This document shows positions 1-5,405 of a DNA stretch of 64,000 nucleotides, piece after piece (within the stretch, counting starts at the first letter, position 1; each line of letters begins with the position of its first letter). The position numbers were made by a program, and so were the translations under genes. Source of the DNA: an uncultured Holophagaceae bacterium (GTDB lineage Bacteria > Acidobacteriota > Holophagae > Holophagales > Holophagaceae); NCBI GenBank assembly GCA_903937385.1, contig CAIZZF010000019.1:20993-84992 (forward strand), read 5' to 3'. The notes beneath the pieces are model-generated. The model was not told the origin of the DNA. It saw only the letters and a list, made by a program, of their open reading frames with translations, and ran no database searches.

Positions 1-78
1 GGAAGCCTTGCCATGAATCACCTGGAAGCCCCCGGATTCAAGGGTGGTGTTTCAGTTTCAAGTCATGCTTGGACCTGG

Positions 79-888
79 CTATGGGGCGCTCGCCGCCATG
101 GCGGCCTTGCCCCGCTTGCTGTACTCCAGCAGGGTGACGTTCTTCCTCACGAAGTTAAGGAACTGAGGCTTCCACTGCTTCCCAGGTTCAGGCCAAACAG
201 GAACATCCTTGACACAATAGAACATGGCTTCGTAATGGCCCCATAAGTCAGGGATATCACGCTCTTGCTTCTCAAGGATGGCCTGATCAGCAGTTTCAAG
301 AACCCACTTCTTGCCAAGATTGCTGTGCTTCTCACAGCACTTTGACCACTCCTGTAACAGCCAAGTTATGCGCCCAGCAAGAGAGAGCTTAGCTTTTGAG
401 TCTAAAGAGGTGAGTGGGGGATCGTTTATAGCCTCTTTTATAAGAGATCCCCCACTCTCCTCATTCATCTTTATTTCCTTATCTTTCTTATCTGTCGGCG
501 GTGGATCTGCAATGGTTGAAGTTAAGGTGGCACCGTTACCACTCCGTACCTCCTCGTCCCCCACCGTTGCGCCATCGTTACCAGACCGTACCTCCTCGTT
601 ACCACTTTTACGTGGCTCCTGCAGGAAGCTGAAATCTAGGCTAATGGTCCATAGACCATCCTGCAGATTGAACAGTTTGGCTTCTTGGATCTCCTGCCAC
701 CACCGGGTCATTTCACGGGTATTCCCGTGGTGGCAGATGTACTTGATGTGATCAAGCCTGTCTTTGAAACCCCCCTGTTCAACACAATGGAAATACAGCT
801 TGGCGTAAGACCACCCAGCCCCTGGGCTAAGGTGCTCAAGCTCGACAGCCTTGAAGAACTCGTTGTGCTTGAACATGCTGTACTTCAC
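79..888 (-). CDS. Putative phage replication initiator / replisome organiser
   Basis: 269 aa ORF with repeated EEVRSGN segments and a KKDKEIK linker, typical of phage O-like initiators; 4-bp ATGA overlap with the upstream DnaC-like gene. Confidence 0.6.
   Translation of the reverse strand: MKYSMFKHNEFFKAVELEHLSPGAGWSYAKLYFHCVEQGGFKDRLDHIKYICHHGNTREMTRWWQEIQEAKLFNLQDGLWTISLDFSFLQEPRKSGNEEVRSGNDGATVGDEEVRSGNGATLTSTIADPPPTDKKDKEIKMNEESGGSLIKEAINDPPLTSLDSKAKLSLAGRITWLLQEWSKCCEKHSNLGKKWVLETADQAILEKQERDIPDLWGHYEAMFYCVKDVPVWPEPGKQWKPQFLNFVRKNVTLLEYSKRGKAAMAASAP
420..605. repeat. Iteron-like direct repeats plus AT-rich tract (candidate replication origin)
   Basis: cgttaccactccgtacctcctcgt (534-557) vs cgttaccagaccgtacctcctcgt (576-599), 22/24 identical; third cgttacca at 597; AT-rich, pyrimidine-skewed tract at about 420-490. 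Confidence 0.6.
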
Positions 889-1487
889 TGCGGCTCCTGA
901 GACTCTCCGGTGTCCTCATCAACGAGCACCCGTTCGCCCTCAGGTTTGTAGGTGGGCCATTGCGCCAGGATGGATGCCACGGAGTGATCCACGACTACCC
1001 CTGGGCACGACTGCAGGACCCAGGTGGGCTTCTCAATTCGGTATCGATCCATGAGGTAGCCATGGAGCATGGAGTTGTAAGCCTCAGACTTCACCACGGA
1101 GTCCAGAGACACAATGAGGAGGGGGCAGTTACGGATCTTGGCGTCCATGTTGCCAAGGGGATCATCCTCCTTACTAGCATGGTTAAAGGCGTCCCCTAGA
1201 TCCTTAACTGTGCAGTGAATGACCGACAAACCCTCCTCTAAATGGAGGAGCAGCAGACCCCGGATGAGCCCCCAACCATCCCTGATGCTGGCTGATATGT
1301 GGATGCTGTTCTTCAAGGGCTCCAGGTCCTGGAACCCTTGGGTTACGTAGGGGACACCCCTGGGGAACGTTTCCAGAAGTTGCCGACACTGCCTCACCCT
1401 ACGGCACTCACACTTGATCAGGGCTTGCAAAGCCGCATGGAAGATCAATCCCGTGTCCTCGCACTTCTCACATTTATATGTGGTCAT
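885..1487 (-). CDS. DnaC/IstB-like helicase-loader homologue with degenerate ATPase motifs
   Basis: Strong RBS (AAAGGAG) before ATG 1487; N-terminal CEKCEDTG...CEC Zn motif; C-terminal LLIVSLD and DRYRIEKPTW match the DnaC Walker B region and the RY-x3-KPT motif; no Walker A. Confidence 0.6.
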   Translation of the reverse strand: MTTYKCEKCEDTGLIFHAALQALIKCECRRVRQCRQLLETFPRGVPYVTQGFQDLEPLKNSIHISASIRDGWGLIRGLLLLHLEEGLSVIHCTVKDLGDAFNHASKEDDPLGNMDAKIRNCPLLIVSLDSVVKSEAYNSMLHGYLMDRYRIEKPTWVLQSCPGVVVDHSVASILAQWPTYKPEGERVLVDEDTGESQEPQ

Positions 1488-1489
1488 AG

Positions 1490-1585
1490 TTACTCCTTTC
1501 TCCCTCGATCGCAGGCGGCTTTGGCAGCGGGACCCAGGTGGGCAGGATTTGGAGGTATGAGTTGCTTCTTGGGTGACTTGGCCAT
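1490..1585 (-). CDS. 31-aa small ORF MAKSPKKQLIPPNPAHLGPAAKAACDRGRKE
   Basis: AGGAG RBS upstream; its TAA lies within the RBS region of the DnaC-like gene, 2 nt before that ATG; not in the ORF track. Confidence 0.5.
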   Translation of the reverse strand: MAKSPKKQLIPPNPAHLGPAAKAACDRGRKE

Positions 1586-1680
1586 GAATGGCTCCTTTGG
1601 TTGCGGCTAGCACATTGCAGCCTTGGTCGAGATACGAAGGGTTCAGAACAAAGATTCAGAAGTTCAGAAAATATTTTTAT
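1566..1680 (-). promoter_or_regulatory. Copy 1 of a duplicated promoter/operator-RBS module (three TTCAGA boxes)
   Basis: TTCAGA at 1642, 1655 and 1663; whole block aligns with 1917-2032. Confidence 0.55.
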
Positions 1681-1906
1681 GGTGCGTCAACTCGAATTCA
1701 GGCATGACGTCTCTGCTCTCGGTTGAGAGGTTGGTTGAATACGGGTTAACACTCCCTAGGCGAGTGGGTGAATCCTGCGATCCATCACCCACTCCATGCC
1801 TGTACGCCTCCCACTTCATCTCCTCCGATACTCTGGTTACGCGGTGTGATCGCCAACCTTCATCAGGTGGGAATCCTGCTGGGTCCAAGTGGGCAAACCC
1901 AGCAGG

Positions 1907-1936
1907 TCAGTGTTTCTTCTTAGGTGACTTGGCCAT
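1907..1936 (-). other. 9-aa leader-like ORF MAKSPKKKH followed immediately by a hairpin
   Basis: AGGAG RBS; ATG GCC AAG TCA CCT AAG AAG AAA CAC TGA; 10-bp inverted repeat at 1875-1884/1897-1906 directly after the stop. Confidence 0.45.
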
Positions 1937-2032
1937 GTGTGGCTCCTCTTTTCGGAGGGGGCGGGATGCCACCCTCTAGGACTACATACGAGAGGTTCAG
2001 AAAAACATTCAGAGGTTCAGAACATTTTTTTT
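1917..2032 (-). promoter_or_regulatory. Copy 2 of the duplicated promoter/operator-RBS module (three TTCAGA boxes)
   Basis: TTCAGA at 1996, 2008 and 2016; ttcttaggtgacttggccatgtgtggctcct matches ttcttgggtgacttggccatgaatggctcct of copy 1. Confidence 0.55.
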
Positions 2033-2048
2033 GGGGGGGGGGTGCGGA

Positions 2049-2459
2049 CTACTCCTTGGACCCTGGTGGTTCGCCTCCATCCACCTGGTCAAGCAGGTTG
2101 CTGAGGGAGTTTAGTAGTTCGTCTACACCACCGAGCATTTCAAGCTGGACCTCTACTTGCCGGATGAACTCAAGCTCAGAGGTTGGCCTAGGACGTATTC
2201 CCAGCGCCTTCAAGTAGTCAAGGAGTCCATCGAGCAGGTCCTTATCCAAGCCCCACTCATTCTTGGCATCGGCCAGCCGCCCAATGTGGTCGATATACAT
2301 CGGCCTCAGTTTTGTCTGAATGCTTGGATCAACCAGGTCCACGTGCTTGTGGTCTAGAACGGCTCCAAGGCGGTCAAGGGTCGCTCTCTCCTGGAGGACC
2401 TCCAGCGCAGACTGAAGCAGATGGATGCAGGGACCTGGTGGCACCCCGTAGAGGGTCAT
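2049..2459 (-). CDS. Hypothetical phage protein (136 aa)
   Basis: ORF co-oriented with the element; ATGA overlap with the upstream gene. Confidence 0.6.
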   Translation of the reverse strand: MTLYGVPPGPCIHLLQSALEVLQERATLDRLGAVLDHKHVDLVDPSIQTKLRPMYIDHIGRLADAKNEWGLDKDLLDGLLDYLKALGIRPRPTSELEFIRQVEVQLEMLGGVDELLNSLSNLLDQVDGGEPPGSKE

Positions 2460-2881
2460 TGCCAGATCCCCTCAGCACGGAGGTAGGCCTCGATGGAGCC
2501 GACAATGGGATTCACGATCCAGTAGTTCTCGCCCACCTGAATCACCGCCCATCCCTCAGCAGGGCTGAGGCTGGACAGCCGTCCCAGGAACTCGTTATCA
2601 ATGCCTAGACGGTCTAGGATGGGCTGCTGGTCTGACATCAAGAGCTTGGTAGCAATGTACTCACCAGGCCGTGGCCAGATGGCAGGGTCCACATGGCCAC
2701 CTCGTAGCACCAGGATTGAGGCCATCCACTGCGCATTGGTGAGGATGGGACGGCTCTGCTCGATGATGGAGAGATAGCGTTCCTCGGACTGGCTGCTGAA
2801 TGACACAGGAAGCTCCGTAGCTCGGAGGCAGGGGTATCCTGTTCTCCATGTCTGATACGAGTCAGGTCTGAATGATTTCAA
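2456..2881 (-). CDS. Hypothetical phage protein (about 141 aa, start uncertain)
   Basis: ORF co-oriented with the element; TTG start from the ORF track. Confidence 0.55.
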   Translation of the reverse strand: MKSFRPDSYQTWRTGYPCLRATELPVSFSSQSEERYLSIIEQSRPILTNAQWMASILVLRGGHVDPAIWPRPGEYIATKLLMSDQQPILDRLGIDNEFLGRLSSLSPAEGWAVIQVGENYWIVNPIVGSIEAYLRAEGIWQ

Positions 2882-2939
2882 AAATCATTTCAAGAAACCC
2901 GTTGAGTCGCAGGGGGATAGCTTGAACTGGTTGAGCCAG

Positions 2940-3293
2940 CTACTTGAGACGGGCCAGTCCCGTGAGTTCGGAAGAGGTCAGTTCAAACTTCTCCTGTAAC
3001 GTTGCACCGGGCTTCAAATCTGTTCCGGGCTTGAACCTGAAAGTGGTTCGTGCCTCCACATCCTTGAAAGCACCAGGTCCACTTGCGATTCGGGGGTTCC
3101 TGACCCTACCCGCATCCTTGTGCTGAGCCTTGAAAGAGCCGAATCCAGTCAGGGTGACTGCAACACCGTTATGAAGGTCGTTCTTCACCATGTCGAGAAA
3201 GCACTTCAGTACCACCCGAGTGGCTTTGGGGTCGAGGTTGAGTTCCAGGGCGAGGGACTGAGCTACCTGGCTCAGGTTTTTCTTGTTCGTCAT
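2940..3293 (-). CDS. HU/IHF-family DNA-binding protein (element-encoded)
   Basis: VTLTGFGSF, RVRNPR and FRFKPGTDLK motifs; GGAG RBS before ATG 3293. Confidence 0.85.
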   Translation of the reverse strand: MTNKKNLSQVAQSLALELNLDPKATRVVLKCFLDMVKNDLHNGVAVTLTGFGSFKAQHKDAGRVRNPRIASGPGAFKDVEARTTFRFKPGTDLKPGATLQEKFELTSSELTGLARLK

Positions 3294-3390
3294 CGGGCTC
3301 TCCAATGAGCGTTCTGCTCATGCCCGATACGAGTTCATTCCTCCGAATTTCAAATTTGTCTTCAGGGAAGCCTGAAAACTCAACTATGGT

Positions 3391-4545
3391 TCACTTCCCC
3401 TTCTTCTGGGTGAGGGCAGGCAGCTTCATCAGCCTCCAGAGGTGCTTGCTGACCTTGTCGTTGGTCTCCTGAAGGGGCTGCCAGTCTGCGACTAGATACG
3501 TCTCTACTATCCTCCCGAGGGAGTGACCTATCAGAAGCTCTACATGAAGGTGATTGACCTTAATGTCCGCCCCTACGCTCTTAAAAGTTCTGCGGAAGTC
3601 ATGCCTCCTGAAGTCGTTTCCAAACCCAGCGGCCACCCTGATCTCTTCCCAAGCTTCCCGGATCAGGGATGCTGACACCCTCGGGAGTTGTTCCCAGCAC
3701 CACAAAGCCTCGGGTGATAGATGAAGAGTCTTGAGGTTCTTCACACCTTCAACCCCATTAAATTCCACCAGCCGCTTCTTCTTGTCGAAATGGCCCATGC
3801 CGATCTGTTCAAGGGCCCCGATCCTACCCCCACAGAGCAATGGCACGATGACGCCCCAGCGATAGAGATGTTTGGATCTCTTCACGGCATCACCGAGCGC
3901 TTTCAACTCCTCAGCGTAGAGCCTCACCTGGCGGGGTTTTAGTGGGACATACTCAATGCCGTGGCATGGGTTGATCTCTGGGCAACCCTCATAGCGGTCC
4001 TGACCATACTCGAACAGGCGGCTCAGGGTTCTTTGGCAGGAGTTCCTGGTTGCCGAGTGCCCTTCATCAACGATGTCGTCTAGGAACCCTTTGACCACCT
4101 TTCGGGTTATCTGGTCGAGCGGCAGACTTCCGAGAGCCTTGACGATCCTCTTCAGGTTCACGCCCTTGTTCCGTGCCTCGGCCTTGCTCTGGTGTGGATA
4201 CTTCCTGAGGAAGTCCTCCGCCGCAGCCTTCAGGAACATCACCTTGGAACCAGGAGGCTCCTTCTCCCTAGACAACGGCTTAGACAATGGAGTGCCCTTG
4301 ACCCGAATCTCATCAGCCATGTCCCTGGCCTGGGATGGGGTGATCCCCGAAATGGAAAGGGCTGTGGACTTGCAACGGCCCAGGGTAACGATCTTCTGCT
4401 TGCCATCCTTGCTGTAACGCAGCACCCATGAGGCGATGCCCTTGGGAGTCACTTGGCAGAACAATCCCCTGCAGGTATCATCAGGTATCCGCACGGTTAT
4501 GGCCTGCGGCTGGATGGTTTTCCAATCATCGTCTTTGAACTTCAT
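3391..4545 (-). CDS. int: Tyrosine recombinase/integrase with arm-binding N-terminal domain
   Basis: N-terminal SWVLRYSKDGKQKIVTLG arm-binding motif; catalytic R (GGRIG), HxxR (HDFRR), LIGH and Tyr (ETY). Confidence 0.93.
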   Translation of the reverse strand: MKFKDDDWKTIQPQAITVRIPDDTCRGLFCQVTPKGIASWVLRYSKDGKQKIVTLGRCKSTALSISGITPSQARDMADEIRVKGTPLSKPLSREKEPPGSKVMFLKAAAEDFLRKYPHQSKAEARNKGVNLKRIVKALGSLPLDQITRKVVKGFLDDIVDEGHSATRNSCQRTLSRLFEYGQDRYEGCPEINPCHGIEYVPLKPRQVRLYAEELKALGDAVKRSKHLYRWGVIVPLLCGGRIGALEQIGMGHFDKKKRLVEFNGVEGVKNLKTLHLSPEALWCWEQLPRVSASLIREAWEEIRVAAGFGNDFRRHDFRRTFKSVGADIKVNHLHVELLIGHSLGRIVETYLVADWQPLQETNDKVSKHLWRLMKLPALTQKKGK

Positions 4546-4561
4546 GGCCCCCCCAGGCGTC

Positions 4562-4596
4562 AGACAACGATCCCCCCGTTGTCTGTCTGTTGTCTA
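4562..4596. promoter_or_regulatory. Candidate integrase arm-type binding sites
   Basis: gttgtctg (4578-4585) and gttgtcta (4589-4596) as direct repeats, plus inverted agacaac (4562-4568), just upstream of int. Confidence 0.4.
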
Positions 4597-4685
4597 GTGC
4601 ATTTCCTGAACCCCGGTTCAAGATTTCATGACCATGGAGGCTAAGTCCTTTAACCAAAAAGGAATTAGTGAAGCAGGCTTACAAG

Positions 4686-4761
4686 GCCAACTTAGCTCAG
4701 TTGGTAGAGCAGCTGATTCGTAATCAGCAGGTCGCAGGTTCGAATCCTGTAGTTGGCTCCA
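4686..4761 (+). tRNA. tRNA-Thr (anticodon CGT)
   Basis: 76-nt cloverleaf: GCCAACT/AGTTGGC acceptor stem, GCTGA-TTCGTAA-TCAGC anticodon arm, GGTTCGAATCC T-arm, encoded CCA. Confidence 0.97.
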
Positions 4762-4800
4762 GTGAAAAGGCCCCCGCGTGCGGGGGCCTTTTCACTGGAG
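4757..4800 (+). terminator. Perfect 21-bp inverted repeat overlapping the tRNA 3' end (terminator-like)
   Basis: ctccagtgaaaaggcccccgc-gt-gcgggggccttttcactggag. Confidence 0.7.
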
Positions 4801-4807
4801 AAAGATG

Positions 4808-4990
4808 GGGATTCGAACCTGCGAGTGGACTGCCCGAGGCGTGCCTAGATGGCACGCCGAAGCAGGCCGGCACACGGCGAAGCCGGGTGCGGTTCGAATC
4901 CCGCCCGAGTGCGTCGAGCCCTTCTCTAACCCAGCAACTGGCGAAGCCAGGAGCGGCGTCGCTGCCGTAGGAGTGTGTCGAGGCTCTTCC
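4808..4990. repeat. Multi-hairpin palindromic element bounded by tRNA T-arm-like inverted repeats
   Basis: gggattcgaacc (4808-4819) / ggttcgaatccc (4891-4902); internal ggcgtgcc/ggcacgcc stem and GAA-triloop hairpins. Confidence 0.55.
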
Positions 4991-5024
4991 CCGACCTGGC
5001 CATGAGCGAACCCCTGGAACGCCC

Positions 5025-5405
5025 TCAGATCCGCCTCGAGCCTCCCTGCTGTTTGCGCGCGGCCTCGGCGCTGTCCAGCTCGAGGGCCTCGTCCTCGAGG
5101 ACCGACAGGGTGGTGGTGCGGCCGTTCAGGTCCAGAGGCTGCCCTTCGTCTGGGATGAACAGGACGTGCTCCTCATCCCAGCGCCCGCGGTGGCGCTCGC
5201 CATCTGCGAAGAACTGGGACTCGCCCTCGCCCGGCAGGACGGCCACCCACCGGGCGTTGCCTGCGCCACTGGAGAAGGCCAGGAGGACCCACCAGGGCTC
5301 GCCCCGGGCCTCGACCTCCTCGAGGAGCTCGACCAGCGCAAGGGGCGCCTGAAAGGTCTGCCTGCGCAGCTCATCCAAGTCTCGGATCCGCTTGACGTGC
5401 AGCAT
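5025..5405 (-). CDS. Hypothetical protein (126 aa)
   Basis: ORF with host-like codon usage; GGAGG upstream of ATG 5405. Confidence 0.6.
   Translation of the reverse strand: MLHVKRIRDLDELRRQTFQAPLALVELLEEVEARGEPWWVLLAFSSGAGNARWVAVLPGEGESQFFADGERHRGRWDEEHVLFIPDEGQPLDLNGRTTTLSVLEDEALELDSAEAARKQQGGSRRI

Follow-up and report, generated by a model that had tools for sequence, protein, structure and literature searches.

The 64-kb stretch of DNA analysed here, called the window below, is contig C19:20993-84992 of a 3.7-Mb genome of 67% G+C; its first 4.7 kb (53-58% G+C) form an element that lies beside a tRNA-Thr(CGT) gene and reads all its genes from the minus strand. Two look-alike minus-strand blocks, at 1527-1683 (copy A) and 1875-2035 (copy B), are found in this element. 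In the explanation that we consider best, to which as a whole we give a probability of roughly 0.55, the blocks are paralogous copies of a promoter ahead of the replication-side genes, each followed by one copy of a translation-start cassette. P_B and P_A, as the two promoters are called, would be members of a promoter class (TGAAW-N14-17-CGTAT) from which every operon of the element's family is read and which in the host is otherwise essentially confined to mobile DNA; they would be tandem promoters with candidate operators, and the transcript from P_B would begin with a structured leader.

The duplicated blocks and their predicted promoters

Each block contains three boxes, which read TTCAGAA on the plus strand at 1642, 1655 and 1663 in copy A (start-to-start spacings 13/8) and at 1996 and 2016 in copy B, where the box at 2008 is TTCAGAG (spacings 12/8). 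All five exact TTCAGAA of the 64-kb window fall in these two clusters. In both copies AGGAG stands 6 nt ahead of an ATG, and the frames share the start ATG GCC AAG TCA CCy AAG AAG. The copy B frame is ATG GCC AAG TCA CCT AAG AAG AAA CAC TGA (1936-1907) and encodes only MAKSPKKKH; a hairpin of 10 Watson-Crick and two G-U pairs, referred to as HP1, starts one base past its stop. Copy A opens a 31-aa open reading frame (ORF) whose TAA stop (1492-1490) lies 2 nt before the orf200 ATG (1487), and the AGGAG of orf200 sits within this ORF. An earlier note, made from the letters of the window, had described two blocks with three boxes each, an AGGAG and a MAKSPKK start, the upstream copy ending at once in a stem and the downstream copy abutting the next gene, and the sequence agrees with that description throughout. 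The same locus is present at 99.96-100% identity in five other assemblies, all from lake metagenomes; both blocks are in all five, with no polymorphism inside them.

The likeness between the copies consists of three co-linear repeat pairs at an offset of 351-354 nt: 1527-1596/1878-1947 (74%), 1622-1651/1976-2005 (77%) and 1650-1678/2003-2031 (86%). The promoter sub-block (~1632-1683 versus 1986-2035) scores 64, where shuffles have a mean of 13.8 and a maximum of 23, and the translation-start sub-block (~1533-1597 versus 1885-1948) scores 66, with a shuffle mean of 15.2 and a maximum of 28; 0/500 shuffles equalled the score in either case. Between the two sub-blocks, the central 33-35 nt of the 5' untranslated regions (5'UTRs) of copies A and B are no more alike than shuffles. 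Downstream of a shared TGCCCACyTGG there is again no significant likeness (75 of 500 shuffles score as well), and a remnant of the orf200 start was for this reason ruled out as the origin of copy B.

In P_B, the distal box TTCTGAA (2016-2022) is followed by the middle box (2008-2014), which goes with a -35 element TGAAT at 2007-2011, by the proximal box TTCTGAA (1996-2002) within a 16-nt spacer, and by a -10-like CGTAT at 1986-1990. P_A has the same layout, with the distal box at 1663-1669, the middle box at 1655-1661 with TGAAT at 1654-1658, the proximal box at 1642-1648 within a 17-nt spacer and CGTAT at 1632-1636. We take the middle box to be the -35 element because TGAA(A/T), 16-17 nt before CGTAT, recurs ahead of each operon. 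The minus strand of the 4.7-kb element contains four copies of TCGTAT and the plus strand none. All four have TGAA(A/T) 16-17 nt ahead of them and stand before an operon, one at the IHF/HU-like gene, one at orf116 and one each in copies B and A. A strict form of the motif, T[CT]TGAA-N15/16-TCGTAT, has three matches on both strands of the 3.7-Mb genome, all of them in this element, where by our own estimate about 0.15 would be expected by chance.

For comparison with relatives, we used contigs from an orf200 search (seven relatives) and an orf116 profile search (six further), together with one congeneric genome. In 37 kb of family DNA, comprising this element and seven related contigs, [TC]GAAW-N14-17-CGTAT is found at 20 sites, versus 0.92 +/- 0.98 (maximum 4) in shuffles. 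The spacing across these 20 sites is 14-17 nt with a mode of 16, and those with a visible downstream gene all point toward that gene, as judged by reading. The looser motif has only two other intergenic sites in the host genome, C1:3440 and C3:38504, the first of which precedes a serine recombinase in another low-G+C island. A consensus scan found no housekeeping sigma-70 promoter (TTGACA/TATAAT-like) at either block, and the base at the would-be -7 of a TATAAT-like hexamer is never T in the family sites. That P_B and P_A are tandem promoters, as had been proposed in the earlier note, is well founded on the recurrence of TGAAW-N16/17-CGTAT in both blocks and at operon starts of the element and its relatives; we infer from the same motif that both are active.

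The promoters of sigma-W in B. subtilis have a -35 element TGAAAC and a -10 element CGTA (PMC5758882). Like promoters of extracytoplasmic function (ECF) sigma factors, the family sites combine TGAA(A/T) and CGTA(T) about 16 nt apart, have a downstream element that starts with an invariant CG and lack T at the would-be -7. Unlike them, the -35 is without the AAC core, reading TGAAAT, TGAATG, TGAATC or TGAATT, none of the sites is adjacent to an ECF sigma or anti-sigma gene, and no host site precedes a sigma gene; the host motif is also almost only in mobile DNA, which differs from an ECF stress regulon of the host. An ECF-like promoter class so largely restricted to mobile DNA raises the question of which sigma factor serves it.

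Some further sites and sequences near these promoters can be recorded here. In the island at C1:1-9000 (56% G+C), the motif ahead of the serine recombinase reads TGAATCGCGTTGACGTCAACTCGTAT and differs little from a site at the end of the related contig L056. An IHF/HU-like gene lies in this island too, as does a LexA-like gene of which an almost identical copy is found at C19:8725-9663. Two relatives (L055 2214, L058 1103) have an additional site, CGAAA-N15/16-CGTAT, in the last part of the orf116 homologue and shortly upstream of the orf136 homologue's start, which suggests a putative internal promoter. The homopolymer run that adjoins P_B upstream (T8-G10 on the plus strand, C10-A8 on the coding strand) is identical in six assemblies and is a possible slipped-strand site.

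Candidate operators and the leader of P_B

The spacer of all five promoters that follow orf136 (P_B, P_A and those of L056, L055 and L058; four elements) contains TTC-N1-2-GAA, which is present in 0/15 other family promoters. What is conserved in this spacer element is a palindrome (TTCTGAA, TTCTGGAA, TTCCGGAA) rather than TGAAC. Because it is present solely in promoters following orf136, it is operator-like, and the spacer box and the distal box may, we infer from these patterns, be binding sites for a regulator. L055 belongs to the same genus, has the same arrangement at the same tRNA-Thr and shows TGAATTTCTTTCTGAACCCCCGTATTTAG after its orf136 homologue; 25 of 30 bases match the P_B core from -35 to -10, with 0/300 shuffles as good. 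L058 has TGAATTTTCCGGAAGAGGTCCCGTAT at the position after orf136. In the closest relative, L056, whose orf116 is 74% identical, the promoter reads A8, then GTTCAGAA TT TCTGAAT TTTA TTCTGGAAC ACA CGTAT.

In every related element, this promoter type comes immediately after the orf116/orf136 pair. The genes downstream of the module in L056 are unrelated to orf200 and orf269, and thus the module travels with orf116/orf136 and not with orf200/orf269; in L050, homologues of orf200/orf269 are preceded by a different palindrome, without boxes. The blocks are thus partly kept in related elements: the P_B block is kept in L056 and its core in L055, the distal box is less stable, and the P_A motif is lost in L056. 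Of the idea that the promoters are repressor-controlled, the operator-like spacer palindrome holds across four elements, but the boxes are not three equal operators, the middle one being the -35, and no repressor gene was found. As a possible DNA-binding regulator, only the IHF/HU-like protein of the element is recognisable.

Other searches with the boxes and the module were negative. When IMG/VR and one genome per species were scanned for the exact three-box array, only chance matches turned up, in unrelated and mostly low-G+C DNA, and the whole module had no real BLAST match among 133 genomes from the family of the host. Integrase arm sites were considered as a role for the boxes and rejected: the boxes are 2.6 kb from the tRNA, and the gap between integrase and tRNA has different repeats, as judged by reading.

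Downstream of P_B, L056 keeps the first 20 nt of the 5'UTR with its stem-loop (one G-C changed to G-U), the Shine-Dalgarno site and a frame, MAKPIKKIY followed by TAA, with nine codons and a stop position equal to that of copy B. With frame length, stop, hairpin and 5'UTR all kept in L056, the upstream copy appears to be a maintained leader rather than a product of decay. In L050 and L058, the equivalent promoter is followed by a hairpin and then by a 7-codon frame with a Shine-Dalgarno site before it (MNHANAP and MNQAHAP; of six differences, five fall at third codon positions), which makes a mini-frame a recurring feature of the family. The suggestion of leader peptides is partly supported, in that the Shine-Dalgarno site, frame length and stop of copy B kept in L056 and the analogous frames in L050 and L058 point to a conserved mini-frame. 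The 31-aa ORF of copy A is in no relative.

The most conserved DNA of the locus is the non-coding stretch at 1691-1790 (90 nt), which is 86-97% identical to L056, versus 64-76% for the flanking genes. Coding in this region, by a 52-aa ORF on the minus strand or ORFs of 91/118 aa on the plus strand, was rejected: L056 has a 1-nt indel that puts both frames out of register, and it lacks the minus-strand ATG. Pairing of the conserved stretch with the duplicated blocks at the RNA level was likewise rejected, duplex energies being no better than those of shuffles, and the leader contains no complementary run of at least 9 nt to either block apart from the hairpin itself. Rfam has no match in window 1-5300 besides the tRNA, and a scan of metagenomes with a 20-mer from the conserved stretch returned two chance matches, in repeat-protein genes. 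No intrinsic terminator with antiterminator is seen in the leader; HP1 (-20.5 kcal/mol) is without a U tract, and no alternative fold was seen.

The corresponding position in several relatives has features of its own. A conserved palindrome, (G)TTTGAC-N2-4-GTCA(A/G)AC, stands before the gene at the orf200 position in L050 (900-1010), L055 (3540-3640) and L059 (3600-3705), embedded in TGAATACCG...TATTCA. Upstream of it there is an 'ORF' of about 30 codons (M[PF]F[AT]LHPATPVPMVA...), the 3' half of which is frame-shifted between relatives; it is thus conserved as DNA or RNA and not as protein. The module of L056 is followed by one gene and then immediately, on the opposite strand, by a reverse-transcriptase gene (RVT_1, 421 aa; L056 2163-3428), possibly a group II intron or retron insertion.

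Proposed mechanism, rival explanations and known systems

In the preferred explanation, P_B and P_A would both read the minus strand toward the replication-side genes. A regulator bound to the spacer and distal boxes would compete with RNA polymerase, one regulator switching both promoters together. The P_B transcript would be a structured leader, made up of the 5' stem-loop, the Shine-Dalgarno site, the 9-codon frame, the hairpin and the conserved 90 nt and running into P_A; P_A and the second cassette would start an orf31-orf200-orf269 operon. Since the stop codon lies at the foot of the hairpin, a terminating ribosome could open it, and translation of the 9-codon frame might in this way modulate read-through from P_B, which is speculative.

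L056 aligns through the copy A promoter and the start of the copy A 5'UTR, with complete divergence left of ~1600, and there is no second translation-start block in L056. From this alignment, the 31-codon ORF of copy A looks like a copy of the B cassette set behind an older second promoter.

Several observations weigh against this explanation. The comparative set amounts to about seven mutually related elements, and counts taken over it are not independent. The L056 counterpart of P_A is without both TGAAT and CGTAT. L055 has no distal box at the expected position, and in L056 this box has the opposite-strand form, TTCAGAA. The element's proteins and the relatives' precomputed Pfam assignments include no recognisable regulator or sigma factor for any member of the family. 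The L056 counterpart of HP1 is far weaker, at -9.5 kcal/mol, with one compensatory change (G-C to U-A) and one pair lost. Since conservation is lacking at residues 4, 5, 8 and 9 of the 9-codon frame, a role, if there is one, would lie in its translation and not in the peptide.

The leader admits a rather unlikely alternative, in line with the attenuation or sRNA/peptide pair suggested in the earlier note, in which P_B mainly yields an RNA of ~105 nt that ends at HP1, with translation of the nine codons deciding whether transcription continues into the replication genes, as in an attenuator or a small RNA. The stop codon 1 nt before a hairpin of -20.5 kcal/mol would suit such a role, as would the fact that L056 retains the length of the frame, the place of its stop and the hairpin, with a compensatory change in one pair, and the element with the strong hairpin is also the one with a second promoter, P_A, downstream of it. 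The folds show no U tract and no antiterminator pairing, although the missing U tract is not disqualifying, because about 69% of the strong hairpins after genes in the host have two or fewer T in the next 8 nt. Against attenuation there is also L056, in which the P_A counterpart has lost its motif and the downstream genes would have to be read through a hairpin of only -9.5 kcal/mol, and a frame without regulatory codon logic. It is unlikely, too, that the boxes are polymerase signals only, that is, repeated -35-like TGAAC/TGAAT with an UP-like A tract and no separate repressor or activator. The boxes do contain TGAA(C/T), the core of the family -35, and a regulator gene was not found; but other family promoters have a single TGAAW and a spacer without a box, the spacer element is conserved as a palindrome and not as TGAAC, and CGTAT is not at promoter distance from the distal or the proximal box.

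An origin by tandem duplication, with copy B a neutral, decaying relic whose frame was cut by a nonsense mutation, would account for the co-linearity of the copies at a constant offset of 351-354 nt and for the alignment of the copy B frame with the first nine codons of the copy A ORF, with TGA where copy A has ATA. We regard it as improbable, given that L056 keeps the copy B version (nine codons, hairpin, 5'UTR) and not the copy A ORF, that the likeness is confined to two functional-looking sub-blocks with an unrelated 5'UTR middle and that the most conserved DNA of the locus follows copy B. The least probable reading, to which we attach very little weight, makes the box clusters iterons for the element's initiator that flank a melting region, as in satellite or plasmid origins, with the resemblance to promoters secondary. 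Two sets of three direct repeats, each by an A/T run, do bracket a structured and conserved stretch of ~300 nt near replication-type genes, but the boxes are of 7-8 nt, are spaced 8 and 12-13 and overlap a promoter motif that is found before non-replication genes as well. Moreover, L056 has boxes without orf200/orf269 and L050 has orf200/orf269 homologues without boxes, so that the boxes are not co-inherited with the putative replication proteins. We also hold it improbable, in about the same degree as the relic, that this family of small tRNA-Thr elements has a transcription code of its own, with the CGTAT promoters read by an element-borne specificity factor (the ever-present orf116/orf136 pair being the sole candidate) and with the 9-codon frame at the hairpin as a translation-sensing switch that, jointly with the TTC-N-GAA operator, would time the replication of a satellite-like element.

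Under the preferred explanation of tandem promoters with candidate operators and a structured leader, the paired blocks are a variation on known phage control regions and not a new kind of system. The tripartite operators of lambdoid phages, OR1-3 and OL1-3, are palindromes of ~17 bp that overlap early promoters. In the blocks, too, three related sites cluster at an early promoter, one of them overlapping or lying between the positions contacted by polymerase, and there are two such sets per element; the blocks differ in that the sites are 7-8 nt long, both sets face the same direction 350 nt apart before the same genes, and no cI/cro-like gene is adjacent. Leader-peptide attenuators of the trp and erm types are known, as are leaders with a short upstream ORF and a hairpin. 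Like these, the P_B leader has a Shine-Dalgarno site and a very short frame ending at the foot of a strong 5'-leader hairpin, a geometry kept in a relative; unlike them, it has no U tract, alternative pairing or informative codons, and the peptide sequence is poorly conserved.

A further comparison is with the satellite phage P4, in which leader immunity involves the promoter P_LE and pairing of the CI RNA with seqA/seqC. The present element is also small and integrative, with a tyrosine integrase bearing Arm-DNA-bind_3, which we take to be P4-like, and it has a long structured leader with a repeated block before replication genes; a large protein of L055, judged by reading its sequence, may be primase-helicase-like. 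Unlike in P4, no leader stretch is complementary to the duplicated blocks, and the repeats are direct copies of a translation start and not RNA pairing partners. The analysis thus overturns no known principle of gene control in phages or satellites. For an uncharacterised family of small integrative elements, whose hosts are lake bacteria, it provides a concrete map of regulation that can be tested: a promoter motif at every operon start, a candidate operator specific to the replication-side promoter, and a conserved leader with a mini-frame and a hairpin.

The element and its neighbouring genes

Coordinates of the features are collected in the table. The earlier note's term prophage is too strong, since no genes for virion proteins are seen, and the element is better described as small, integrative and satellite-like.

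Features of the element and its module in window coordinates, listed from the tRNA gene toward the start of the window
Feature	Position	Strand	Remarks
tRNA-Thr(CGT), integration landmark	4686..4761	+	Related element L055 (congeneric genome) at same tRNA, same arrangement
Tyrosine integrase with Arm-DNA-bind_3 domain	3391..4545	-	
Predicted promoter of IHF/HU-like gene, TGAAA-N16-CGTAT	3327..3352	-	
IHF/HU-like DNA-binding protein gene	2940..3293	-	
Predicted promoter of orf116-orf136 operon, TGAAA-N16-CGTAT	2855..2880	-	Orthologues in L056 and L057
orf116, GTG start	2456..2806	-	Pair with orf136
orf136	2049..2459	-	Pair with orf116
C10-A8 homopolymer run	2025..2042	-	Directly upstream of copy B distal box; A8 kept in L056, C10 not
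Predicted promoter P_B	1986..2022	-	Orthologous promoter in L056 and L055
5'UTR of P_B transcript, with 5' stem-loop (GAGGG..CCCUC) and AGGAG 1944-1948	1937..1985	-	
9-codon leader frame MAKSPKKKH and TGA (copy B)	1907..1936	-	
Hairpin HP1	1875..1906	-	Partly kept in L056
Highly conserved non-coding stretch between both promoters	1691..1790	-	Versus L056
Predicted promoter P_A	1632..1669	-	
Second translation-start block, AGGAG 1592-1596, ATG 1585, opening 31-aa ORF (1585-1490)	1490..1596	-	
orf200 (gene termed DnaC-like earlier)	885..1487	-	
orf269, start overlapping orf200 end	79..888	-	

The label 'DnaC-like' for orf200 is not established. The protein has an N-terminal CxxC...CxC zinc ribbon, and residues 3-40, that is, the zinc ribbon alone, match the DnaC-like NCBIfam models PRK06835/PRK06921 far below the cut-off. 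An alignment of six orf200 family members shows no Walker A motif (GxxGxGK[ST]) or P-loop, as would mark the AAA+ ATPase domain of a DnaC/DnaI helicase loader, and neither orf200 nor orf269 has a Pfam or PHROG match. One relative of orf200, 25% identical, is encoded directly before a DnaB-type helicase gene and a primase gene, and a role beside a replicative helicase is plausible, whereas placing orf200 in the DnaC family is not. The family is rare: an exhaustive HMMER search found seven relatives of orf200, but neither a word-indexed protein search nor searches of 401 genomes of the phylum and of GenBank phages gave a homologue of orf200 or orf269. The N-terminal 90 aa of orf269 are 52% identical to the product of the gene that follows the orf200 homologue in L050. 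A single-sequence structure model of orf200 was uninformative, with a predicted local distance difference test score (pLDDT) of 34.

For orf116 and orf136, no DNA-binding match was found with the orf116 model and searches with profiles against the PDB. An AlphaFold model of orf116 (8-sequence alignment, pLDDT 78, all-helical) has its best PDB match in AcrIE10, a weak one (TM 0.54-0.56, E 0.29) that hints at a possible anti-defence role.

The edges of the element show traces of other mobile DNA and of the tRNA. An IS21 copy (IstA 485-501 aa, IstB 258 aa) lies within C19:18226-20992, just to the left of the window and about 570 nt past the end of orf269, and may have truncated the element. A lysine-rich ORF of 37 codons lies on the opposite strand between orf269 and the IS21 copy; an opposite-strand ORF of 37 codons occurs in the relatives L059 and L060 too, near an HU-like gene. 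On the other side, after the terminator hairpin of tRNA-Thr (4757-4800), an inverted copy of the tRNA T-arm is found at 4809-4824, complementary to 4732-4747 at 16/16 positions, and a second T-arm-like motif, GGTTCGAATCC, at 4891-4906. Neither ARAGORN nor Rfam calls a gene at window 4800-4910, and the T-arm copies there could be tRNA fragments left by integration events. Finally, the coding sequence of orf269 (404-465, 531-599) contains an inverted repeat of 27 nt with 85% complementarity, as well as a tandem duplication of 42 nt that encodes repeats of ...EEVRSGN(D)GAT..., and one other assembly breaks exactly at this repeat.

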